Shown one piece after another: positions 19,138-60,902 of a stretch of DNA of 64,000 nt; position 1 is the stretch's first letter, and each line of letters begins with the position of its first letter. The DNA comes from an uncultured Actinomycetes bacterium (GTDB lineage Bacteria > Actinomycetota > UBA4738 > HRBIN12), in contig CAVPLL010000010.1 in the NCBI GenBank assembly GCA_963706005.1, positions 251,670-315,669 of the forward strand, in the 5' to 3' direction. A program made the translations under genes and the position numbers. The notes beneath the pieces are model-generated. The model was not told where the DNA came from, did not search any database, and was given only the letters and a program-made list of their open reading frames with translations.

Positions 19138-19287
19138 GTCAGTCAAGGATCCGTGGGACGTGCGGGTCAATGCGCCGTTCCACCTACGGACGGTGCGGGG
19201 TGGAAGGTGGTGGGCGGAGGAGCCGATCGTGACCGGGGTCCGGCCGGGGAGTGACGGGCCACCTCAGCCCCCGCGGCCACCGACCGA

Positions 19288-19293
19288 TATCGT
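19288..19293 (+). promoter_or_regulatory. Putative -10 box TATCGT, 6 nt upstream of ATG 19300 (leaderless-type)
   Basis: Embedded in ACCGATATCGTT. No SD. Confidence 0.4.
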
Positions 19294-19299
19294 TGCCGC

Positions 19300-22200
19300 A
19301 TGCCCCAGCTCTGTCCCGGGTGCTCCACCTCGAACCCCGACGAGGCTCGTTTCTGCCTGAACTGCGGCACGCGCCTGGACGTAGCCGCGGGCGTCGATGA
19401 GGAGACCCACCTCGAGCCCTACCTCCCGAAGGCCATGCGGTCCAAGCTCGAGGCGGCGCGCATCGGCCGGGCGATGGAGGGCGAGCGCCGGGTCGTCACG
19501 ATGCTGTTCTGCGACGTCAAGGGCTCGACGGCCATGGCCGAGCGCCTGGACCCCGAGGAGTGGGCCGAGATCATGAACGGCGCGTTCGAGCACCTGATCG
19601 CGCCGATCTACCGGTACGAGGGAACGCTCGCCCGGCTGATGGGCGACGCGATCTTCGCCTTCTTCGGGGCGCCGATCGCCCACGAGGACGACCCGCAACG
19701 CGCGGTCTCGGCGGGCCTCGACATCGTCGACGCGATCCGCGTCTACCGCGAGGAGCTCGAGGCGGACCGCGGTCTGGACCTGAACGTACGCGTCGGCATC
19801 AACACCGGACCGGTCGTGGTCGGTCAGGTCGGGTCGGACCTCCGCCTGGAGTACACGGCGATGGGTGACGCGGTGAACGTCGCGGCCCGGATGGAACAGA
19901 CCGCCGAGCCGGGCACGGTCCAGATCACCTCGGAGACGTACCGGCAGGTCGCCCCGTTCTTCGAGACCGAGTCCCGCGGCGGGGTCGAGGTCAAGGGCAA
20001 GGCCGAACCCGTGCTCGCGTACCGCGTGCTCCGGCGCTCGCTGCGGCCCCCGAGCGTGCGGGGCACGCTCGCCACACCGCTCGTCGGCCGCGAGCGCGAG
20101 ATGGAGATCCTCGAGCGCACCATCGAGCAGACCCTGGAGGGGCAGGGGCGGGTCGTCTCGCTGATCGCGGAGGCGGGTCTGGGCAAGAGCCGTCTGATCG
20201 AGGAGACGCGCAGGGTGTGGACCGAGCGTCGACCGCAGGACGCCCGGCTGTACGGCGGCAACGCGATCCACCGGATCTGGGAGACCTGGCAGTGCGTCTC
20301 CTACGACACGACCCGCCCGTACGCGCAGTACCGGCGCATGCTCGCCCGGATCGCGGGGATCGGCGACACCGATCCGCCGGACGTCGTCCGCGACAAGCTC
20401 GCCGCGACGATCGAACCCGACGCGCCCGAATGGCTCGACCGCCACATGCGCGTGTGGCGGTCGCTGTTCGGGGTGCAGGAGGCCGACGAGGAGCCGCTCG
20501 AGGGCGAGGCGTTCAAGGACGCGATCATGGAGCTCGTCCCCGAATCGACGCGGTACTTCGGCTCCCTCGATCCCCGGCTGCTGGTGTTCGAGGACCTGCA
20601 CTGGTGCGACGACGCGTCGATGGATGTGCTGATCGAGACCGTGAAGACCGTCGACGAGCTGCCGTGCCTGTTCCTGTTCGCGTTCCGTCCCGACCAGCAG
20701 GCGCCCTCGCGGCGCCTCAGGCGTTGGCTCGAGGCCGAGCTCCCCGACCGGTCGACCGAGATCGAGTTGTCGCCGCTGTCCGAGCGGGATAGCGGCGCCC
20801 TGATCGACGCGTTGCTGCCGGACACCGACGGGGCCGACGACCTGCGGGCGCGGATCCTCGAGCGCACCGAGGGCAACCCGCTGTTCGTGGAGGAGGTTGC
20901 GGCGTCCGTGCTGCAGCAGGGGGCCGAACGTGGCGGCGCGGTGGCGATCCCCACCACGCTGCAGGCCCTGATCACCGCCCGGCTCGACTCGCTGGACGAG
21001 GGATCACGGCGGACGCTGCAGCTCGCCTCGGTGATCGGGCGCACGTTCCCCGAACCGGTGCTGCGCGCGGTGTCCGGCGACGGCGACCAGCTCGCCGAAC
21101 GGCTCGACACGTTGCAGCGGGCGGGGCTGATCAGCCGGACCGAGGACCCGCCGTCGCCCGAGCCCGAGTACGGGTTCCACCACAGCCTCACCCAGGAGGC
21201 GACCTACTCGACGATCCTGCTCCGCGTTCGACGGGAGCTGCATCGCCGGGTCGGAGAGGTCTTCGAGGAGCTGTATGCGAACCGGATCGAGGAGTTCGCA
21301 CCGCTGCTCGTCCGACATTTCGAGGAGGCGGGCGATGACGAGCGGACGCTCCGGTACGCGACCGTCGCCGGCGACAACGCCGCCCGGCTGCACGCGAACC
21401 CCGAGGCCGTCACCCACTTCACGACCGCGATCGAGGCCGCGGCCCGTCTCGGGCAGACCGAGCCACCGCTCCACCACCTGTACCCCACCCGCGGCCGGGC
21501 CCTCGAGCTCTCGGGACGCTTCGACGAGGCGGTTGCGAACTACGAGGGGATGGAGCTGCTGGCTGAGGGCTCCGGCGACCGGGACGCCGTGCTCGCGGCC
21601 GAGATGGCCCTCACCACGTTGCACGCGACGCCGACGCCGAAGTTCGACGCGGAACGGGGACGCGCGCTTTCGGAGCAGACCCTCGCGCTGGCCCGTCAGC
21701 TCGGCGATCGAGGCGCCGAGTCCAAGGCCCTGTGGAACCTGATGATCCTGAACGTGTTCGGCGGCGGCGATCTCCACGAGGCGCTGGACGCGGGTGAACG
21801 CTCACTCGCGATCGCGCGTGAACTGAACGCGCGCGAGCAGATGGCCTTCACGCTGAACGACCTGTGGCGTCCCTACGCGGCGGTCGGCGACCTCGCATCG
21901 TCCCTCGCGAGCCTGCAAGAGGCCACCCCGATCTGGCGGGAGCTCGGCAACCGCCCCATGCTGAGCGAGAACCTCGCGAGCATCGCGTCGCTCCGGCGCA
22001 TCGAGGGGGACGACGCGGAGGCGCTCGCGTTGGCGATGGAGGGGTACCGCATCTCGGAGGAGATCGGCAACCAGTGGGGTCAGGCCTACGGCCTGATGAA
22101 CGCGTACCCGATCTTCTGGGATCGGGGCGAGGTCGGCGAGGCGATCTCGGCGATGCAGGACTGCGTCGGACTCGCCGAGCGATCCGGGTTCGTCCCGCCT

Positions 22201-22866
22201 CAGGCGACGACGCGCGCCGACCTCGCATCCGTCTACGCGAACCTCGGCGACCTCGAGCGCGCGTACGAGCTGATCGACGTCGCGCTCCAGGTCGCGACGG
22301 AGCGGCAGGCGATCGCGCTGCCCCGGGTCATGGGCGCCAAGGCCGAGCTCCATCTGCTCGCAGGCGACCTCGAGCAAGCCGAGGCGACCGCCGCCGCGAC
22401 CGAGGTCAACCTGCTCCCCGAGCCGCTGCGCTACGCCGCGTCGGTGCACATCGCGCTGGTCCGAGGGGATCTCGCGGAGGCTGAGGGCGATCATGCCCGA
22501 GCGATCCAGATCGCGGACGCGATCGTGGAGCGGCTCCGCGGGATCGGCATCCGTTCGTTCGTACCCGAGGCCCTCCTGCTGGCGGGGCGGTCGCTCGCGG
22601 AGGAGGGGCGATCGAAGGAGGCGGAGCGGGCGCTCCGCGAGGCCCGTTCGGAGGCCGAACGCATGGGGCACCGGCGGATCCTCTGGCGGATCCTGTGGGA
22701 GCTGAGCGGCGTTCGCGCGGCCGCGGGCGATGTCGACGAGGCGAGCCGGCTCCGCGGCGACGCCGCGCGGGTCGTGTCGGAGATGGCGGCGACGATCGAC
22801 GACGAGCGTCTCCGGTCGACGTTCCTCGCGCGTCCCGACGTGAAGGGGCTGCTGTCCGAGGAGTAG
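19300..22866 (+). CDS. Zinc-ribbon / class III adenylate-guanylate cyclase / AAA (STAND-like) ATPase / TPR multidomain regulator, intact
   Basis: CPGCSTSNPDEARFCLNCG. Cyclase motifs VTMLFCDVKGST and GDAIFAFFG. Walker A AEAGLGKSRL. Long TPR-like C-terminus. Uninterrupted 1188-aa ORF. Confidence 0.9.
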   Translation: MPQLCPGCSTSNPDEARFCLNCGTRLDVAAGVDEETHLEPYLPKAMRSKLEAARIGRAMEGERRVVTMLFCDVKGSTAMAERLDPEEWAEIMNGAFEHLIAPIYRYEGTLARLMGDAIFAFFGAPIAHEDDPQRAVSAGLDIVDAIRVYREELEADRGLDLNVRVGINTGPVVVGQVGSDLRLEYTAMGDAVNVAARMEQTAEPGTVQITSETYRQVAPFFETESRGGVEVKGKAEPVLAYRVLRRSLRPPSVRGTLATPLVGREREMEILERTIEQTLEGQGRVVSLIAEAGLGKSRLIEETRRVWTERRPQDARLYGGNAIHRIWETWQCVSYDTTRPYAQYRRMLARIAGIGDTDPPDVVRDKLAATIEPDAPEWLDRHMRVWRSLFGVQEADEEPLEGEAFKDAIMELVPESTRYFGSLDPRLLVFEDLHWCDDASMDVLIETVKTVDELPCLFLFAFRPDQQAPSRRLRRWLEAELPDRSTEIELSPLSERDSGALIDALLPDTDGADDLRARILERTEGNPLFVEEVAASVLQQGAERGGAVAIPTTLQALITARLDSLDEGSRRTLQLASVIGRTFPEPVLRAVSGDGDQLAERLDTLQRAGLISRTEDPPSPEPEYGFHHSLTQEATYSTILLRVRRELHRRVGEVFEELYANRIEEFAPLLVRHFEEAGDDERTLRYATVAGDNAARLHANPEAVTHFTTAIEAAARLGQTEPPLHHLYPTRGRALELSGRFDEAVANYEGMELLAEGSGDRDAVLAAEMALTTLHATPTPKFDAERGRALSEQTLALARQLGDRGAESKALWNLMILNVFGGGDLHEALDAGERSLAIARELNAREQMAFTLNDLWRPYAAVGDLASSLASLQEATPIWRELGNRPMLSENLASIASLRRIEGDDAEALALAMEGYRISEEIGNQWGQAYGLMNAYPIFWDRGEVGEAISAMQDCVGLAERSGFVPPQATTRADLASVYANLGDLERAYELIDVALQVATERQAIALPRVMGAKAELHLLAGDLEQAEATAAATEVNLLPEPLRYAASVHIALVRGDLAEAEGDHARAIQIADAIVERLRGIGIRSFVPEALLLAGRSLAEEGRSKEAERALREARSEAERMGHRRILWRILWELSGVRAAAGDVDEASRLRGDAARVVSEMAATIDDERLRSTFLARPDVKGLLSEE

Positions 22867-51340: not shown

Positions 51341-54300
51341 GTGGCTCGAACCGCGCAGGACGGACCGGGGACGGGAGCGCTCGCGGCGGCCCACGCCACG
51401 CTCTCCCCCCTGGCCCTGCACGCCCTGCTGCCGGCCGGCGCGCTGGTCGGCCGACCGGTCGAGGTGACCGCGATCGAGCAGGAGCTGGCCTCGGTCGCGG
51501 CGGGCCGGCTGGCCGGCGCGACCCTCGAGGGCGAGCCCGGCATCGGCAAGACCCGCCTGCTGCTCGCGACGGGCGAGATGGCGACGGCCCGCGGGTTCAC
51601 GACGATCGCGGTGACGGGTGACGAGGAGCTCCGCGGGCCGTTCCTGGTCGCGCGCTCGATCGTCGGGTCCGTCGAGGCGATGGAGGCGGCCCGCGGGCGC
51701 GTCCGCCGAGGAGACGCTCGGGCGCTGCATGGACGCCATGACCGGGCAGGACGACCCGAGCCTCGCGAGCCTGCCGCCGGACCGCAAGCTCCTGCGGACG
51801 CTGGATCTCGGCGCCGTCGCGATGCGCGACCTCGCGGCGATCCGGCCGGTCGCGTTGCTCGTCGACGACCTCCAGTGGGCCGACGACGACAGCCTGCGGC
51901 TGCTCCGCTACATCGTCCGCGCCGACGCGGCGAGTCCGATCTTCCTGCTGTTCGCGATCCGGCCCGAGGAGTTCGCGCTCGTGACCGAGGCCGTCAACCT
52001 GGTCGCGGACATGGAGCGGGTGGGGCTGGTCCGCCATCTGCGCCTCGACCGCTTCAGCCAGCCCGAAACCAAGGCGCTCCTGCAGCAACTCCTCGGCGGG
52101 ACCGTGAGCGCGTCGAGCGCCGCCGCGATGCACGGGCAGTCCGAGGGCGTCCCGTTCATCGTCGAGGAGATGGCGCACGCCTACCGCGACGGCGGGATGA
52201 TCCAGCAGATCGACGGCGTCTGGACGCTTGCCGGCAACGCCGAACGCCTCGTCCCCTCGGCGGTCCGAACGCTGATCTCGCGCCGCGCCGCCCACCTCCC
52301 CGAGGACACCAAGGCCGCGCTCGCCGAGGCGGCCGTGCTCGGACGCAACTTCAGCCTCAAGGACCTGCGCGAGGTCCGGCTCCGCGTGGACGAGCAGCAG
52401 GTGAGCCTCGAGGAACTGGCGGCATCGCTCGCGCCGGCCGTGGCCGCGGGCCTGCTCGTCGAGCACGACGAGCGCTCCGCCGCCGACTATTCGTTCCCGC
52501 ACGACCAGATCCGCGAGTTCGCATCCGCCGGCCTCTCGGCACCGCGCCGGCGCGCGATCCACGCGGCGATCGTCGACCTCCTGCTCCTGGGCGATCCATC
52601 GCCGGCCAGCCTGCCCCTGCTCGCGCAGCACGCGAAGGCCGCGGGCGACGCCGAGATCTGCGTGCAGGTTCTCGCTCGAGGCGAGCCGCATGGCGCTCGA
52701 CGCGAACGCCCCCGAGGAGGTCCTGCGCGTCGTCGAGGTGGCGCTCCCGTCGGCCGCCGCTCCGACGGAACGGGTCGACGCTCCTCGAGGCCCGCGATCG
52801 CGCGCTCGAGATGCTCCGCCGTCCCGAGGACCGGATGCAGGGCCTCGCCGAGCTGTCGGCGCTCGCCGGAGCCCTCGGGGACACGAGGCTCGAGCTCGAC
52901 GTTCGCCTCCGCCGGGCCGCGACGCTCCGGATGCAGGAGGAGGAGGAGCGGGCCGCGACCCTCGCGCGGGAGGTCCGCGAGCTCGCGGCGTCGAAGGGCG
53001 ATGCGGCGACCGAGCTCGCCGCGTGCATCGAGCTCGGGCAGGACCTGCTCAAGAGCCCGCTCGGCGAGGGCTACATCCCGCCCGCGCGCGAGGTCGACTT
53101 CGACGGGGCCGAGGAGGCCTACCGCCGAGCCGCCGAGCTCGCGAAGGAGCTCGGGGACGACGCGAGCCTGGCCGCCGCGCTCCGCGAGCAGGGCGTGATC
53201 GAGCTCGGCCGGGTGCGGGAGTGGTTCGTCGACCGGATCCTGACCAACGAGCAGCTGCCGGTCGTGCGGCGCATCGCGGCCGGCGAGTCGATCGACGACA
53301 TCCTGCCGGAGCTGCCGATCGCGCCGGCCGCCGAGGAGGCGGGGCGGGACTTCCAGGAGGCGCTCGAGCTGTTCGAACGCCTCGGCGACCGGCGCGGCGC
53401 GATGTCCACGATCATCGCGATGGGGTACCTCAGCTGGGCGGCCGACATCCACCTCGGCTCCAACGCCGCCCGCCACATCGAGGAGATCCGCCGCCTCACG
53501 TTCGCGATGCGTGCGTTCACGAACGAGAGCGAGCGCGTCGCGTCCGAGGCGCAGATGCTGTACGGCGTCCACGTCTTCGCGCGCGCGAAGGTGATCCCCG
53601 ATCTCGCCGTCTCGCGCGGCGAGGAGGCGTACGAGAAGGCGCGGGAGATCGGCGACCGGTCGCTCGAGTTCCTGGCGGCCGGCGGGACCGCGCTGGCGCT
53701 CTTCGACCTCGGCGAGGTCGACGAGGGCGGGCCTGGCTCGACCGCGCCGCCGCGACCGCGATCGGGGCCCGACGCCGCTCCGGGCCCGCCGGCTCGAGAC
53801 CTGGCGCGGCCTCGCCGCCGCGGGCGCCGGCGACGCCGAGCAGATGCGCGGCATCTCGAGCGGGCGGTCGAGCTCGCGGCCGACCAGGGCCGGCCCGCGG
53901 CGCGCTGCGAGGCCCTGGCGCTGCTCGCGATCGAGGCCGCCCGCCTGGGTGCCGAGCGGAGCGACCAGGCGCTGCTCGACGTCGCCGAGCGCGCGGCGAG
54001 CGAGGCGGCGGCGCTCGCACCGAACCTGCCGGGCATCCGCCCTGGCGGGCCCAGGCCGACGCGGCGCTCGCTCAGGTCGCGCTGGCCCGCGGCGACGGGG
54101 ACGGCGCGCTCGAGCCGCCGCGGTCGGCGATGCGACGCTGGAGGCCGCGCTGCGGGAGGACCTGTACCTCGAGATGGTCACGCCGGTCGCGAGCGTCATG
54201 CCGCGCACGGAGGCGCCGGAGCGGCGAGCAGCACTGCGAGTACGTGCAGCGGTCAGCTCGCGATGATCGCGCAGCGCACGCTCGACGAGGACGTCCGGGT

Positions 54301-54583
54301 TCGGTGGTTCCGCGGCCCCGTCGGCCGCGAGCTCTCGTCGCTCGCGGATCGCTCGAGACCGCGCTGGTCGGCGACGGCAACGGGCGAAGGTGCAACCGGA
54401 CGACGCGGAGACCGCGTTGCTGCGGCTGCCTGATCGCAGGGCCGGACCAACGCCGAGATCGCCGAGGAGCTCGGGATCGACGAGAACGAGGTGGTCCGGC
54501 AGCTCGGCGAGCTGTTCGCGCGGCTCGGCGCCTCGTCGCGCGCGGAGGCGACCGCGTTCGCGCTCCGGGAGCGCGTCGTATGA
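51341..54583 (+). pseudogene. LuxR-family STAND regulator (AAA ATPase + TPR-like + GerE HTH), at least 6 frameshifts
   Basis: Walker A GEPGIGKTRLL and Walker B LLVDDLQWADDDSL. Long helical-repeat region. C-terminal NAEIAEELGIDENEVVRQLGELFARLG. Segments are spread over all three frames (ORFs 50192..54433, 51618..53198, 52690..55506). Confidence 0.8.
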
Positions 54584-55330
54584 GCGAGGGTGCCCTGATG
54601 CTGCGGGCGCGGGTCGATCGGCACCGCTGCATCGGCGCGGGCAACTGCATCACGATCGCGCCGACGGCGTTCGACTGGCTACCCGGCGAGCTGCTGAAGG
54701 CCGGCGTCGTCGACGCGAGCAGCGTCGAGGAGGAGCTGCTGCGCGAGGCCGTGCTCGCCTGCCCGACGCGGGCGATCGTCGTCGAGGAGGTCGAGGACCT
54801 CCTGCCGTGGCAGCTGCGCGGCAAGGCGGCGCCCCGCCGGGTCGAGAAGACGTTCATGTTCACCGACATCGGCGGCTCGACCAACCTCGTCGAGGCCCTC
54901 GGCGACGAGGCGTGGCAGAGGCTCCTCCAGTGGCACGACGAGACGCTCACGGCGCTGTTCGCGGCGCACCGCGGCGAGGAGGTTGTCACGACCGGCGACG
55001 GGTTCTTCGTCGGGTTCGACTCGCCCGACGATGCGATCGCGTGTGCGATCGCGATCCAGCGCACGCTCGCCGAGCATCGGCGCGCGCACGGGTTCGCCCC
55101 GCAGGTGCGCATCGGCGTGCACGCGTCGCGGCGCGACGCAGGTCGGGCGGAACTACCTCGGGCAAGGGCGTGCACGAGGCGAGCCGGATCGCCGGCCTGC
55201 CGAGGGCAGCGAGATCGTCGCGAGCAAGGCGACGGCGGCGGGCTCGCGGTTCCCGGCGTCGGAGCCCCGGACCGTGACCCTGCGCGGGACCTCGGAGCCG
55301 GTGGACGTCGTCACGGTGGAGTGGCGCTGA
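54580..55330 (+). pseudogene. Ferredoxin (3Fe-4S/4Fe-4S single-cluster type) fused to a class III nucleotide cyclase domain; about 3 frameshifts at 55125-55200
   Basis: RVDRHRCIGAGNCITIAPTAFD...ACPTRAI. Then FMFTDIGGSTNL, TTGDGFFVGF, RIGVHA, GKGVHEASRIAGL and EIVAS in shifting frames. ATGA overlap with the LuxR stop. Confidence 0.7.
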
Positions 55331-55486
55331 GGTCGCGGACGATCGCCCCGTCCGTTCGGCGAACCCATGTTTGGGCACCGACATCTGCGAGGATCCGGTC
55401 GATATCGAGATCGGCATCCGGACTCGATCCGAGGAACGACCCGGACGGGGCGGAGCCGTGGGCGTCGAGAGCGGCCCGACGATCGT

Positions 55487-58400
55487 TCAGCCGAGCGCGT
55501 CGATGAAGGCGCGGGTCGACGCCGAAGCGGGGACGTTCCCCTTGCGCTCGTACATCGCGAGCGCTTCGCCCGCGGCCGCCGCTGCCTCCGCGGCCTTGCC
55601 GGCCGTGCGGAGCACCTTCGCGAGGTCCATCCACGTGTCCGCCTGCGAAGTTCGGCGCCTCGGCGTCCGCGGACAGCTCGACGGCTTCCCGAGCCAGGCG
55701 CTCCGCCTCGGCGAGCTCGCCCCGCGCGACGAGCACGAGCGCACGCGCACATCGCCCTGCCGTCTGCGACGCCAGATCGTCCTCGGCGGCGACGCTGAGG
55801 GCGATCTCCGCGTACCCCTCGGCCTCGTCGAAGCGTTCGAGCGCGCACAGGGCCAACGCGAGGCTCGCGGCCGCCGTCGACTTGTGTCCCTCGTCGCCGA
55901 GCTCGTCGAGGAGGTCGTAGTTCTCCCGGAAGGCGCGTTCCGCGGCGGGCGCGTCACCCGCGTAGAGCTCGAGGTTGCCGAGCGCTCCCGGTTCGCGGCC
56001 ATGTCGAACCGCAGGCCGAGCGATCGCGCGATCTCGTACGCGCCGTCGAGCATCCGCCGAGCCTCGTCGAACGATCCTTCCATCCCGAGGTAGCACCCGC
56101 GCGAGATGAGGGCGAACGCCTCCATCTGGCGACTGCGCGGGAGGTCCGCGCTCAGCTCGTCCAGCGCGTGGATCCCCTCCTCCGGTCGTGCGGTGCCGAA
56201 CATCGGGGCAGCGATCGCGTACAGCAATGCGGCCGCGATGATCCGTTCATCGTCGCTGCGTCGCGCATGGTCGATCGCGCGACGAGCGGCGATCTCGCGC
56301 GCGGTCGTACCTGCACGGCATCCACTCGATCTGCGCGAGCTCCGCCCAGACCGTCGCGAGCGCCGCATCGTCGCCGAGCACCTCGAACACGCGGACCGCG
56401 TCCTCCAGCTCGGAGCGGAACTCCTCGGTGGGTTTCGCCGTGCGGATCCGTAAGCATCTGGGTCGCGGAGCGCCGGATCCGGGCCAGCCACTCCAGCGTT
56501 CGGTCGCCGGCGTCCGAGGCGAGCCCGATGGCCTCGTCGAAGGCCGCGAACGCCGGCTGGGCCTCGCCCACCCATCCGAGAGCGTTCCCGAGGTCGAACA
56601 GCAGACACGCCCGCTCGGCTCCCCGGGCGGTCCGACGTCGACGCCACGACGGAGCAGGTTCGCCGCGGCGACGTGATCACCGCGGCCGGACGCGCGTCGC
56701 CCGGCGGATGCGAGGCGCGCCGCGGCGCGCACCCCGACCGCCTCGGAGCGCTCGTCCGGGGGACCGAGCTGCGTCCGATACCCATGAGCCTGCTCGAGGT
56801 GGTAGGCGACGATCTCCTCCTGCTCGGCGACGGCGTCGCCGGCAACGCGCTCGAGCCAGTCGGCGAATCGCTCGTGCATCTCGGCGCGCTGCGACTTCGG
56901 GATGGCCTCGTACGCCGCGTCACGGATCAGCAGGTGTCGGAACCGGAACGCGTCCTCTCCGGGAAGGGTCGTGCGCTCGGGACGGATCAGCTCCTTGCGG
57001 ACGAGCGCCATGAGATCTCCGGGCACGCGCGAGCGCGACCCCTCGTCGACGAGGTCTCGGACCGCGCCGACGAAGAACTCCTTGCCGACGACGGCGGCGG
57101 CCTCGAGCACCACGCGCTCTTCGGGCGTGAGGCGATCCAGACGCGAGGCCAGCAGCGCCTGGATCGAGGGCGGGACGGTCAGGGTGGACAGGTCGCCGGC
57201 CGCGACCCACCGGTCGTCCTCGCGGACGACCAGCCCATCGTCGATCGAGCATCGCCAGGGTCTCCTCGACGAACAGCGGGTTCCCCTCGGCCGTCCCGAC
57301 GATCCGCTCGGCGACCTCGTGTCGGGAAGCCGGTCGAGCCGAGCAGGTTCGCGATCAGTGCCGCCGACTGTTCCTCGCTGAGCGGCTCGAGCGACACGGT
57401 CGCGGCGTTCAGCTTGCCTCCGCCCCAGCCCGGACGGACGTCCAGCAGGTCGGATCGTCGCCATGCAGAGCAGCAGGATCGGCGAGCCTCGCGACCAGTC
57501 CGCGATGTGCTCGACCAGGTCGAGGAACGTCGGCTCGCCCCAGTGGATGTCGTCGAACACGAGCACGAGCGGACGCTCGCGCGCCGACGCCTCGAAGAAC
57601 CGTCGGATCGCCCAGAAGGTGTCCTCGCCGGCCGCTGCATCGGCGACGCCCATCAGCTGCGAGACGCGCCGGCACAGCGAGCTCCTGGTGCTCGTCGCCC
57701 TCGAGCACCGAGCAGACCTTGGACTCGCACGACCTCCGGCAGGTCGAAGTCGGCCAGGCCGGCCGCCTGCTTCACGGTCTCGACGACCGGGAAGTACGTG
57801 ATGCCCTCGCCGTAGGGCAGGCACCGGCCGCGGAGGATCCTCGCCCGCTCGCCGACGAGGGACAGGAACTCCTCGACCAGGCGGGACTTGCCCGACGCCC
57901 GCCGGCCCCAGGATCGTGAAGAGCTGGCACGCCTCGTCGCCCTCGGCCGCGTCGAAGGCCTGCCGGAGCTGGGCGAGCGGCCGCTCCCGTCCCACCATCG
58001 GCGAATCCAGGTGTCGTGGGACCGCCGACATCACCTCGCGGACACCGAGCAGACGCCAGGCCGGGACCGGCTCGGCCTTGCCCTTCAGGTCGAGCGGTTC
58101 GACCGCCTCGGCCTCCACGGCGTCGCGCACGAGGCGATAGGTCGGGTCGCCGAGCAGGACCTCGCCCGGCGCCGCGTGCTGTTCGAGGCGGGCGGCCACG
58201 TTGACGGCGTCACCGGTCACGAACGCGGGGTCGGCTGCCGAGACCCCCGCGACGACCTCCCCGGTGTTCACGCCGATCCGCACCTGGATCGTGACGCCGC
58301 GGTCCCGCTCGAGCTCCTTGTTCAGGGTCGCGAGCCCTTCGCGCATGTCCGCCGCCGCCCGCGCCGCCCGCAGGGCGTCGTCCTCGTGCAGCTGCGGGAT

Positions 58401-58685
58401 GCCGAACACGGCCATCACGGCGTCGCCGATGAACTTCTCGACCGTGCCGCCGTGACGCTCGATCGCGGCGCGCATCGCGTCGAAGTAACGGGACTGGACG
58501 TCCCGGAGCGATTCGGGGTCGAGTCGCTCGCCGAGCGCGGTCGAACCCGTGACGTCGCAGAAGACCACGGTGACGGTCTTGCGCGTCTCCCGGCCCGGCG
58601 AGGCCGCCGCGAGCGGGGCCCCGCACACCGGGCAGAACGCGAAGTCCTCAGGGCTCTCTCGGCCGCAGTTCGGGCACGTCGGCAT
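55487..58685 (-). pseudogene. Second zinc-ribbon/cyclase/AAA-ATPase/TPR regulator (paralogue of 19300..22866), many (at least 8) frameshifts
   Basis: CPNCGRESPEDFAFCPVCG, TVVFCDVTGSTAL, GDAVMAVFG, disrupted Walker A ILGPAGVG..., LVFDDIHWGEPTF, and a TPR-like tail ending ...ALAMYERKGNVPASASTRAFIDALG*. Confidence 0.8.
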
Positions 58686-58766: not shown

Positions 58767-58772
58767 TAGACT
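58767..58772 (+). promoter_or_regulatory. Putative -10 box TAGACT, 9 nt upstream of ATG 58782 (leaderless-type)
   Basis: TAGACT-N9-ATG geometry, identical to the one at 25344. Confidence 0.4.
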
Positions 58773-58781
58773 GGTCGGGTC

Positions 58782-59153
58782 ATGGACGGCACCTCACGAC
58801 CCGAGGTCATCGTCGATCTCGACTTCGAGCGCGGTCTGCTCTTCCTCGTCGTCCGCAACATCGGCGACCGCCCCGCGCTCGAGGTCCGGACCACGTTCGA
58901 TCGCAAGCTGCTCGGGCTCGGAGGCAGCAGGGACGTCGCCGCCTTGCCGCTGTTCCGGAACATCCCGTTCCTCGCACCGGCCAAGGAGATCCGGACGCTC
59001 CTCGACTCGGCGGGCTCCTGGTTCGCGCACCGCCGGGCGACGAAGATCACCGCGCGGGTGTCCTACCGAGACCCGAACGGCGAGGACTACCGTGGGACGA
59101 TGCGGCACGATCTCGAGATCTACCGCGAGCTCGCGTACGTGAAGGGGGAGTGA
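58782..59153 (+). CDS. Hypothetical protein (123 aa), first gene of the tail-tube operon
   Basis: Balanced composition and high GC3. The stop lies 1 nt before the next start. No domain recognised. Confidence 0.6.
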   Translation: MDGTSRPEVIVDLDFERGLLFLVVRNIGDRPALEVRTTFDRKLLGLGGSRDVAALPLFRNIPFLAPAKEIRTLLDSAGSWFAHRRATKITARVSYRDPNGEDYRGTMRHDLEIYRELAYVKGE

Positions 59154-59154
59154 G

Positions 59155-59589
59155 ATGGCGGCCCCGTCGAGGCACGATCCGTACAAGAACTACCCGTTCC
59201 GCGTCGAGATCGACGGTCTGACCTCGTCCGGGTTCGCGGAGGTCTCCGGGCTGTCCGCCGAGGCGGAGGTGATCGAGTACCGGGAGGGCGCGGACATCAC
59301 GTCGACGCGCAAGCTCCCCGGACCCATCAAGTATCCGAACGTCACGCTGAAGCGCGGCCTCACGACGTCGAGGGAGCTCTTCGATTGGTGGATGACCGTC
59401 GTGCACGGGAAGGTGCAACGGCGGAACGTGCTCATCGTCCTCCTCGACGACGACCGCAAGGACGTTCTGCGCTGGATCCTCCACGACGCGTGGATCGCCA
59501 AGATCGAGTTCGGCGACCTCAACGCCAAGGGCAACGACGTCGCGATCGAGTCGATCGAGCTCGCGCACGAGGGGCTCGAGCTGGAGTAG
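59155..59589 (+). CDS. Phage tail tube protein-like (T4 gp19 / TIGR02241 'conserved hypothetical phage tail region protein' family)
   Basis: YKNYPFRVEIDGL...FAEVSGLSAEAEVIEYREG...KLPGPIKYPNVTLKRGL...W...AWIAKIEFGDLNAKGNDVAIESIELAHEGLE is the canonical pattern of eCIS/phage tube proteins. Confidence 0.85.
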   Translation: MAAPSRHDPYKNYPFRVEIDGLTSSGFAEVSGLSAEAEVIEYREGADITSTRKLPGPIKYPNVTLKRGLTTSRELFDWWMTVVHGKVQRRNVLIVLLDDDRKDVLRWILHDAWIAKIEFGDLNAKGNDVAIESIELAHEGLELE

Positions 59590-59714
59590 CGACCACGGCG
59601 CCCGCGACCGCGTGACCGAGGTCACCTCGATCCGGTGCCGCCGGTCCGTGCCTTCGGAGCCCGAACGTCACACCCTTAGGCCCAAAGTCAGATCCGTGGT
59701 CGGGGGTGAACACG

Positions 59715-60902
59715 ATGAGCGGATCGTCCGGAGCTCGATTGGTCATCGAAGGAGGGCCGCGCGGCGGCGAGCGATACCCGCTCCGGCTGGGCGACCAGGT
59801 GATCGGTCGTGCCGACACGGCGGACGTGATCCTTGGCGCCGGGGACGTCAGCCGGGAGCACGCCCACATCTGGTGGGACGGCGCGACGGCGACCATCACC
59901 GACGCCGGCTCGAGTCACGGCACCGAGGTGAACAGGTACCGGGTCGTCGGCAGCCAGACGCTTCGCCGGGGAGACTTGATCCGCCTGGGGAGCGCCGAGC
60001 TACGCTTCGAGACAGCGGACGCCGAGCAGACCACCGGCCCGTTGCGATCCGCTCCGTCCGAGGGTTCCCCGGCCGGTGGGGTCGGCAACCAGGTCGGACG
60101 CGACAACTACGGCGACATCATCCAGGCGGGTCGCGACGTCAACTACGACTACGACGTCGATATCCTCAACCGTCTCGAGCCGGACGACCCGATGGACGAG
60201 CTCTTCAAGGGCCGCGGTGTCGGCCGCTTGCTCATGGCGATCGGACTGCTGATCGCGCTCGCGGGGTTCGGTGGGTGGATGTACCTGATCCTGTCGGGGG
60301 GAGCGACGATCGCCGGGGGTCGCCCCGTGGACCCGTTCTCCATCGAAGTGTTCGGTGTGCCAGCCGCGATGGTGGCGTTCGGTTCGTTCCTCGTCGGCGG
60401 CGTGATCGCTTCCATCGGCAAGGGGATGTCCAAGGCTGCGCGCGAGCGCGCCGAACGCAGCGCAGGAGACACGGCGCGAGCGCGTCGTCGCGTATCGATG
60501 AAAGGGGGAGCAGCGATGGTTCAGATCTCGAACACCATCGGCGGGAACAACTTCGGCGACATCACGCAGGGCGGTCGGGACGTGGTCGTCACGAAGGTCG
60601 TCTCGCCGGATCCGAGGCAGGCGCTGAACGCCGTCCGCAGCTTGCGGGGAACGCTCGACGGCCTCGAGGTGCCGGAACCGGTGCGCTCGGAGGCCGGCCG
60701 AGCGCTCGACGAGATCGAGGAGGAGCTCCGGATCCCCGAACCCGATCGCGGCGTCATCACCGCGCGCCTCGAACGGTTCACCGAGGTCCTCACCAGTGCG
60801 GGTGCGGTCGCCTCGGCCGGCGCGTCGCTGATCCGGCCGATCCGCGCGATCGCAGCGTGGCTCGGTCCGATCGGCGCGGCGCTCCTGCGTCAGGTCGCCT
60901 GA
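59715..60902 (+). CDS. FHA-domain protein with central 2-TM hairpin and C-terminal helical domain (could start at GTG 59706)
   Basis: FHA: LRLGDQVIGRADTADVILGAGDVSREHAHIWWDG...ITDAGSSHGTEVN...GDLIRLG. TM segments LLMAIGLLIALAGFGGWMYLIL and VPAAMVAFGSFLVGGVIASI. Confidence 0.8.
   Translation: MSGSSGARLVIEGGPRGGERYPLRLGDQVIGRADTADVILGAGDVSREHAHIWWDGATATITDAGSSHGTEVNRYRVVGSQTLRRGDLIRLGSAELRFETADAEQTTGPLRSAPSEGSPAGGVGNQVGRDNYGDIIQAGRDVNYDYDVDILNRLEPDDPMDELFKGRGVGRLLMAIGLLIALAGFGGWMYLILSGGATIAGGRPVDPFSIEVFGVPAAMVAFGSFLVGGVIASIGKGMSKAARERAERSAGDTARARRRVSMKGGAAMVQISNTIGGNNFGDITQGGRDVVVTKVVSPDPRQALNAVRSLRGTLDGLEVPEPVRSEAGRALDEIEEELRIPEPDRGVITARLERFTEVLTSAGAVASAGASLIRPIRAIAAWLGPIGAALLRQVA

Follow-up and report, generated by a model that had tools for sequence, protein, structure and literature searches.

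A contractile-injection-system tube gene paired with a small beta-sandwich partner gene in uncultured soil bacteria

We analysed 64,000 nucleotides from the genome of an uncultured Actinomycetes bacterium (positions 251,670 to 315,669 of contig CAVPLL010000010.1, which is 355 kb long; G+C content of the stretch about 70%), called here the window, with regard to a gene for a phage tail-tube protein near its right-hand end. Together with the gene that precedes it, named p123, this tube gene forms a module of two genes, and not the three-gene operon that the original prediction had read from the letters of the window alone. The tube is probably of the type of Cis1, the inner tube protein of contractile injection systems (CIS). 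What is new here is that a tube of the CIS family occurs in so small a context, two genes only, together with a partner from a new family. Three open reading frames (ORFs) follow one another on the plus strand, at 58782-59153 (p123, 123 aa), 59155-59589 (tube, 144 aa) and 59706-60902 (398 aa, with an FHA domain), and only the first two belong to the module. As the likeliest explanation, which we put forward tentatively, the pair would make an autonomous, sheath-less assembly, a case of a tail-tube protein exapted to serve the cell.

The p123-tube pair across genomes

We scanned one genome per GTDB species for homologues of p123, which gave 80 loci, all of them in metagenome-assembled genomes (MAGs). 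Two further loci were obtained by exact look-up, and with the window itself the set amounts to 83; the other genomes were read as flanks of about 20 kb, and what is said below of absent neighbours holds for about 10 kb around each locus. A p123 homologue directly adjoins a tube homologue on the same strand in all 83 loci. Both starts could be placed in 77 loci; p123 precedes the tube gene in 72 of these and follows it in the other five, and the gaps between the two genes are mostly from -17 to +30 nt. A second scan, of JGI metagenomes, was directed at a distant p123 subfamily (37-52% identical to its query) and yielded 53 loci; a tube gene adjoins p123 in 50 of them, the exceptions being two loci at a contig end and one weak partial match. 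With more than 130 loci taken together, the pairing is essentially obligate; going by their labels, these loci come from no fewer than five bacterial phyla and one archaeal MAG.

According to the record labels, Actinomycetota (mostly Gaiellaceae / Thermoleophilia) account for 48 of the 80 loci of the genome scan and Acidobacteriota for 15, followed by Ignavibacteria / Bacteroidetes (six), 'beta proteobacterium' (three), Armatimonadota, 'Chloroflexia' and unclassified 'bacterium' (two each), Candidatus Fervidifonticultor (one) and Heimdallarchaeota (one). The MAGs with the odd labels are those of loci L070 (Heimdallarchaeota), L034, L046 and L057 ('beta proteobacterium'), and L011 and L025 ('Chloroflexia'); the p123 proteins of L011 and L025 are 74% and 75% identical to that of the window. 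Because some of these sequences are very near to Gaiellaceae ones, the unexpected labels may reflect mis-binning or coarse naming and not host range. One MAG, MFD10007.bin.2.82, holds two copies of the pair on separate contigs (L036 and L040), with p123 proteins 79% and 85% identical to that of the window, and both copies show frameshift-like splits.

With few exceptions among the more than 130 loci, both ORFs are intact, with tubes of 141-150 aa and p123 proteins of about 120-150 aa. The ratio of nonsynonymous to synonymous substitution rates (dN/dS) was below 1 for p123 and for the tube in all 153 close pairs; these NG86 values, from 0.1 to 0.8, are rough, given that the G+C fraction at third codon positions is about 0.9-0.95 and that two of the comparison loci are frameshifted. 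The pairwise identities of the two proteins co-vary (Pearson 0.74), and much of this is shared phylogeny. When all flanks were clustered against one another, no further neighbour was common to more than about 23 loci and only lineage-level synteny emerged; a conserved third gene, an immunity-like one included, was ruled out by this clustering. In one Gaiellaceae group of about 20 species, the pair lies between an unknown 111-aa gene and the PALP and MeaB genes, and in another, of 16 species, it lies between the genes of a YpfJ-like Zn-peptidase and of the Era GTPase. The surroundings of the pair are housekeeping genes in lineage-stable synteny, not islands. Altogether, the pair is old, found widely among uncultured soil lineages, carried on chromosomes and under purifying selection. 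Although the tube family stems from phage tails and CIS, and although many frameshifts affect the neighbouring genes of the window, the intact ORFs of constant length, the dN/dS values, the partnership kept across phyla and the lack of any other remnant gene make it very improbable that the tube is left over, in a state of decay, from a prophage tail or CIS cluster that was lost.

The p123 stop codon and the tube start codon are separated by 1 nt (TGA-g-ATG), as had been seen from the start, and the ribosome-binding site of the tube gene (GGGGGAG) is located within the end of p123. With this arrangement, the two genes are predicted to be translationally coupled. A programmed frameshift that would join p123 to the tube was considered and ruled out: a stop codon in the tube frame, at 59140-59142, leaves 8 nt, and the spacing varies among the loci. 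Upstream of p123, a -10-like hexamer, TAGACT, is present on the plus strand at 58767-58772, 9 nt from the ATG and with no Shine-Dalgarno sequence; as originally suggested, it may serve as the promoter for a p123-tube mRNA without a leader. A TANNNT hexamer, mostly TAGGCT or TAGACT, starts 12-15 nt 5' of the start codon in about half of the loci, nearly all of which are labelled Actinomycetota, against a chance expectation of about 1% at the base composition, the loci not being phylogenetically independent. Given this conservation among the Actinomycetota relatives, it is therefore reasonable to infer a leaderless transcript, and the pair is probably transcribed from a promoter of its own.

The partner protein and the tube protein

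The product of p123 is a basic protein (isoelectric point, pI, 9.1), predicted to be cytoplasmic, and its gene and the tube gene go together as obligate partners in the homologue neighbourhoods described above. Profile searches gave no match to p123 in Pfam, NCBIfam, PADLOC or the sequences of the PDB. An AlphaFold2 (AF2) model, computed from an alignment of 18 sequences, predicts a seven-stranded beta-sandwich (pLDDT 86, pTM 0.79). With this model, Foldseek returned no PDB match at E<1e-3; the best matches were generic Ig-like sandwiches (a TRAP subunit, the cytoplasmic domains of Kir, archaeal pilins) with TM-scores of about 0.45-0.5. The top viral fold match, in BFVD, is an uncharacterised siphovirus protein (TM-score 0.62), and a weak sequence match links p123 to phrog_9607, a family whose function is not assigned (4e-5). 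Homologues of p123 number 311 in a database clustered at 90% identity. In a representative library at 50% identity, its relatives make up 1406 clusters, 84 of them at E<1e-30, and the best 150 of the 1406 are without exception short proteins, of about 90-240 aa, that stand alone. The residues that are invariant in the family include D12, N26, F58, D75 and H109-D110, and all of these but F58 make up a conserved polar patch. Judging from the model, p123 stands for a new beta-sandwich family; with about 1400 clusters at 50% identity, it has no entry in Pfam, and its strict linkage to the tube gene provides a functional anchor for it.

We also asked whether p123 belongs among the CIS proteins. The p123 profile, aligned by hhalign with the 30 proteins of two complete CIS clusters, matched none of them, and the hidden Markov model (HMM) of p123 likewise found no counterpart in 11 reference loci that bear a tube gene; in nine of the 11, a sheath or other CIS genes are visible. 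On these grounds, p123 was ruled out as a known CIS component. Relatives of p123 were not found in IMG/VR viral contigs, phage genomes or plasmids either, and a mobile source for the pair was rejected for this reason.

The call of a tube protein had first been made from motifs, and it was borne out by the profile searches. The 144-aa protein, which is acidic (pI 5.3), scores 150.5 bits against PF06841 (cut-off 28.2; 3e-44), covering positions 2-134 of the 134 of the profile, and 142.7 bits against TIGR02241 (cut-off 62.4; 6e-42); its PHROG match is phrog_4542, 'tail tube protein'. Residues 9-143 align with the main tubes of solved structures, namely that of AlgoCIS (7adz, 116 bits) and All3324 of tCIS (7b5h_AN, 108 bits), while the tube-adaptor chains Cis5, Afp5 and Pvc5 of the PDB score lower (41-58 bits). 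Among the NCBIfam models, CIS5_fam gives 101 bits and CIS1_fam 76 bits, both far under the equivalog cut-offs. The protein is 55% identical to the tube of the complete CIS cluster on plasmid pWB1 of Rhodococcus sp. WB1, and 41% identical to the Cis1 tube of S. clavuligerus. Judged by its sequence, it belongs without ambiguity to the T4 gp19 / CIS inner-tube family. The charges of the two proteins of the pair are complementary, the median pI across 75 loci being 8.9 for p123 and 5.3 for the tube.

The tube appears to retain assembly-competent features, and p123 has the weak links to phage proteins mentioned above (phrog_9607 and the siphovirus fold). Both would suit a role in defence or interference, in which a host tube subunit, restrained by p123, would poison the tails of contractile phages or of CIS. 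We regard such a role as improbable, since the tube is of the CIS type and not of the phage type, the pair resides in stable housekeeping synteny with no variable island, it was not found in plasmids, phages or viral contigs, and no defence family of PADLOC-DB 2.0 is matched by p123, by the tube or by the neighbouring FHA protein.

Absence of other tail genes and possible roles of the pair

The 30 CIS proteins used as queries come from the two complete clusters of Rhodococcus sp. WB1 (pWB1) and of a Streptomyces clavuligerus plasmid, and they were compared by phmmer with all ORFs of at least 50 aa. They cover sheaths, Pvc16/DUF4255, the AAA+ ATPase, tail-assembly proteins, the LysM tube initiator, gpD/VgrG, gpV, PAAR, gp25 and baseplate proteins. 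In the window, which takes in 58 kb on the left of the locus and 4 kb on its right, only the tube queries found a match, and in the 82 related loci and the 53 metagenome loci (135 together) the non-tube proteins matched nothing within the reach of the flanks. Thus no sheath (PF04984/PF17482) was found beside the tube with any of three reference sheaths, whether in the window, in the 82 loci or in the 53 metagenome loci. Neither the window nor the 135 loci hold a baseplate or spike gene (gp25, baseplate J/gp6-like, VgrG/gpD, gpV, PAAR or LysM tube initiator), and the Pvc16/DUF4255 cap and the Pvc15-like AAA+ ATPase gave no match in the window and the 82 loci. A Pfam and PHROG scan of the 48 ORFs of the window disclosed no capsid, portal, terminase, integrase or tape-measure gene, and metabolic, transport and regulatory genes instead. 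Besides the tube, the PHROG matches are to non-structural families (endolysin, ABC transporter, ATPase, reductase, transcriptional regulator), and the 'endolysin' match is explained by the GH25 domain in that ORF. The statement that nothing else phage-like or CIS-like occurs in the window therefore holds for these searches. A GH25 lysozyme domain and an NPCBM domain, maybe in one and the same ORF, are the only other phage-like signal among the 48 ORFs.

What could a tube do in such a context? We favour an autonomous role because the pair is inherited vertically in the manner of housekeeping genes, because p123 is absent from CIS loci, and because the operons of extracellular CIS (eCIS) are rare and horizontally patchy, being found in 1.9% of isolate genomes (PMC8213781). 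In the mechanism that we propose, the acidic tube protein would keep its canonical fold and assemble in the cytoplasm, either into hexameric rings like those of Hcp or into a short tube with no sheath. The basic beta-sandwich protein p123 (14 kDa), made in equal amount, would bind the tube 1:1 as its obligate partner; a cap or chaperone, a surface decoration and a passenger of the lumen are conceivable roles for it. The p123-tube complex would work with neither its own sheath nor its own baseplate. We speculate further, and with more reserve, that soil bacteria (Gaiellaceae, other Actinomycetota, Acidobacteriota, Armatimonadota, Ignavibacteria and others) may have domesticated the tube, together with its Ig-like partner, into an autonomous ring, filament or nanotube that is vertically inherited.

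Several points weigh against an autonomous assembly. The p123-tube complex, and any assembly made of it, is something that we only infer. In a neighbour-joining tree of the pair-associated tubes with CIS tubes from Rhodococcus, Streptomyces, Nostoc, Cereibacter, Deinococcus and Persicobacter, all of which adjoin sheath genes, the pair-associated tubes were monophyletic in none of 50 bootstraps, and CIS main tubes from six phyla nested among them; the resolution of such a tree is poor for a protein of 144 aa. Neither the tree nor the identities show a long branch in the pair-associated tubes or accelerated divergence, such as might follow once the contacts with sheath and baseplate were lost. 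Their mean mutual identity is 48%, their median identity to the CIS tube of pWB1 is 45%, and the best identities to CIS tubes reach 62% (locus L052, to pWB1) and 57% (locus L069, to a Streptomyces tube). The pair-associated tubes are as close to CIS tubes (45-62%) as to one another, and this is expected if they still function inside a canonical CIS. Moreover, soil MAGs contain pWB1-like CIS clusters of the same subtype, and among the pWB1-like sheath matches one is labelled Pyrinomonadaceae, a family that also carries the pair. No contig is shared between the pair and the best 120 of more than 8000 sheath matches, a fraction too small to say much. A CIS at a random position predicts about one overlap with the 82 flanks, and the lack of CIS genes in these flanks therefore excludes tight linkage only, not co-occurrence.

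These observations lead to the alternative that the pair is an accessory module which acts in trans for a CIS encoded elsewhere in the genome, supplying a spare or specialised tube with p123 as a passenger or adaptor. Such a module would account for a tube that is not distinguishable from a canonical Cis1, being 55% identical to that of pWB1 and showing neither a long branch nor a separate clade, and for the presence of same-subtype clusters in soil MAGs, the one with a Pyrinomonadaceae label included. It would also suit a basic p123 beside an acidic tube, and the 14 kDa of p123 are within the size range of the passengers carried in the lumen of Hcp in secretion systems of type VI (T6SS). However, p123 lies in or beside a CIS cluster in none of the 135 loci and in none of the 11 tube-bearing reference loci, the pair is vertically inherited among housekeeping genes whereas eCIS are rare and patchy, and there is no conserved immunity-like third gene. 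Unlike p123, the known cargo genes of eCIS are found in the operon, at its 3' end (PMC8213781). We consider a supply in trans possible, though somewhat less likely than an autonomous role. In two soil CIS clusters, an unannotated 116-aa gene is flanked by the genes of Pvc16/CarboxypepD_reg and of the sheath (L096, 9578-9928; L097, 1608-1958); it is unrelated to p123.

The pair can be compared with several known systems. The inner tubes of CIS (Cis1, Afp1, Pvc1, Alg1) are of the same family and length as the tube of the window and co-linear with it in sequence, but their genes are directly beside those of the sheath, tail-assembly proteins, LysM tube initiator, spike and baseplate, whereas the fixed neighbour of the window tube is p123. 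In the orphan hcp (hcp-effector) islands of T6SS, a tube-family gene is likewise found away from the machine, with a small partner gene beside it. Hcp, however, is of another sequence family, a T6SS is demonstrable in those genomes, and p123 has neither a toxin domain nor a conserved immunity gene. In Streptomyces, the system CISSc is an actinobacterial example of the intracellular use of a phage-tail-derived assembly (PMC10066040, PMC10020575), but it is complete, with about 20 genes that include sheath and baseplate (as in L084), where the pair has two. Finally, the pHG1 megaplasmid of the archaeon Haloferax gibbonsii (L093, 2495-3639) carries tandem PF06841 genes (206 and 175 aa) between the genes of a GH3 glycosidase and of a TRAM-domain protein. 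As with the pair, there is no sheath in the 2.5-kb flanks; unlike in the pair, the partner is a second tube paralogue and the replicon an archaeal megaplasmid.

No published description of the p123-tube pair was found when full texts were searched on PF06841 and on orphan tail tubes. Surveys of eCIS require at least ten core genes (PMC8213781), so that p123-tube pairs would be filtered out of them. Phage-tail parts have so far been seen domesticated as whole machines, namely T6SS, eCIS, tailocins and the cytoplasmic CIS of Streptomyces. A tube that several phyla keep with a single small partner would represent either the most reduced contractile-tail derivative known so far or a new route by which a CIS is supplied in trans, and a domesticated tube with an Ig-like partner, if this proved true, would constitute a new class of phage-derived cellular structure. 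For annotators, the call 'phage tail protein' is not a sign of a prophage here.

The FHA cassette and the other neighbours

Downstream of the tube gene, the original prediction had placed a membrane-anchored FHA protein as the third member of an operon, and had compared the whole with the control of T6SS by Fha/TagH. An FHA gene beside the pair was found in none of the 80 related genome loci, one locus (L032) having such a gene 8 kb away, and the trio is not conserved. The 398-aa ORF does contain an FHA domain (PF00498, 53.7 bits). Its 18 family-level homologues, however, are all of 231-317 aa, 16 of them of 253-274 aa, and cover only about 60% of the ORF. In the relatives, a gene for an FHA protein with two transmembrane segments (FHA-2TM, 255-274 aa) is followed, after 12-14 nt, by a separate 128-aa gene, and in a short-read (Logan) contig from another sample, which encodes an identical tube protein, a 261-aa FHA gene and a 128-aa gene were called. 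Removing one base near 60458-60466 of the window restores a 261-aa FHA protein that ends, as in the homologues, in QETRRERVVAYR before a TGA stop codon at 60499-60501; then come a Shine-Dalgarno sequence (GGGGGAG) and the ATG of the 128-aa gene at 60516. The true start of the FHA gene is the ATG at 59715.

The 398-aa ORF is thus best read as a fusion, through a 1-nt indel, of the FHA-2TM gene (59715-60501, plus strand, with a true product of about 261 aa and a frame broken by one extra base) and the gene of p128 (60516-60902, plus strand, 128 aa). The latter has its own Shine-Dalgarno sequence and is a separate gene in L085, L086, L087, L088 and the Logan contig. All three genes had been taken to be intact, which is right for p123 and the tube and wrong for the FHA ORF. 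The extra base at 60458-60466 and the frameshifted neighbour point to long-read assembly indels in the window, and annotators should bear in mind that such indels can yield false fusions like this 398-aa 'FHA' ORF. No Pfam family matched p128. The FHA protein, after its FHA domain, and p128, at its N-terminus, both contain the motif G-x-[ND]-x-G-[DE]-I-x-Q-[GA]-G-R-D-V, which suggests a shared interaction or oligomerisation element.

The FHA-2TM and p128 genes form a separate two-gene cassette, which happens to adjoin the pair in this lineage. The cassette extends over 59715-60902 in the window, 6001-7226 in L085 and 6001-7183 in L087; without a tube gene, it follows an SRPBCC gene in L087 and L088 and, in L085, two small ORFs that are unrelated. 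In relatives with other upstream genes, about 115 nt 5' of the FHA start are conserved (78% mean column identity), beginning about the palindrome GTGACCGAGGTCAC (59612-59625), to which the original prediction had drawn attention. The palindrome is indeed in the gap between the tube and FHA genes, and it belongs to the leader or promoter region of the FHA cassette (59606-59714, plus strand, as aligned with L085-L088), outside the tube module, because the conservation in these tube-less relatives runs from about the palindrome to the ATG. As a class it is common, the window holding 65 perfect 6-2-6 palindromes against about 41 in shuffled sequences. The leader, which matches nothing in Rfam, could be an operator or an unclassified 5' untranslated element. 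A terminator or riboswitch was ruled out for the palindrome, whose 2-nt loop is too short and which has no T-run and no Rfam match.

A coupling of phospho-threonine signalling to the tube by a membrane FHA protein, in one operon of three genes as in the control of T6SS by Fha/TagH, is accordingly hardly credible. It would agree with the position of the FHA gene on the same strand, 125 nt from the tube gene, in the window and in the short-read contig from another sample, and no terminator is predicted between the two genes, so that read-through is possible in this lineage. An FHA protein adjoining a tube-family gene is also what the window has in common with Fha/TagH. However, the TagH model TIGR03354 gives 18.6 bits with the FHA protein, far under its cut-off of 120.25; the adjacency is not conserved; the FHA gene is part of a separate cassette, which in L085, L087 and L088 follows unrelated genes with its own leader; and the 398-aa ORF appears to be an indel fusion.

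Beyond the 398-aa ORF, on its 3' side, Pfam matches identify a DUF2269 membrane protein and then a USP-Rieske protein. Upstream of p123, a divergent gene on the minus strand (55490-58685), split by frameshifts, encodes a regulator with Zn-ribbon, adenylate-guanylate cyclase, AAA_16 and TPR parts. A paralogue of this regulator is intact at 19255-22863 on the plus strand (1203 aa), and more fragments are present at 51615-55503. Members of this regulator family are also neighbours of the pair (in L081) and of the FHA cassette (in L085 and L087).

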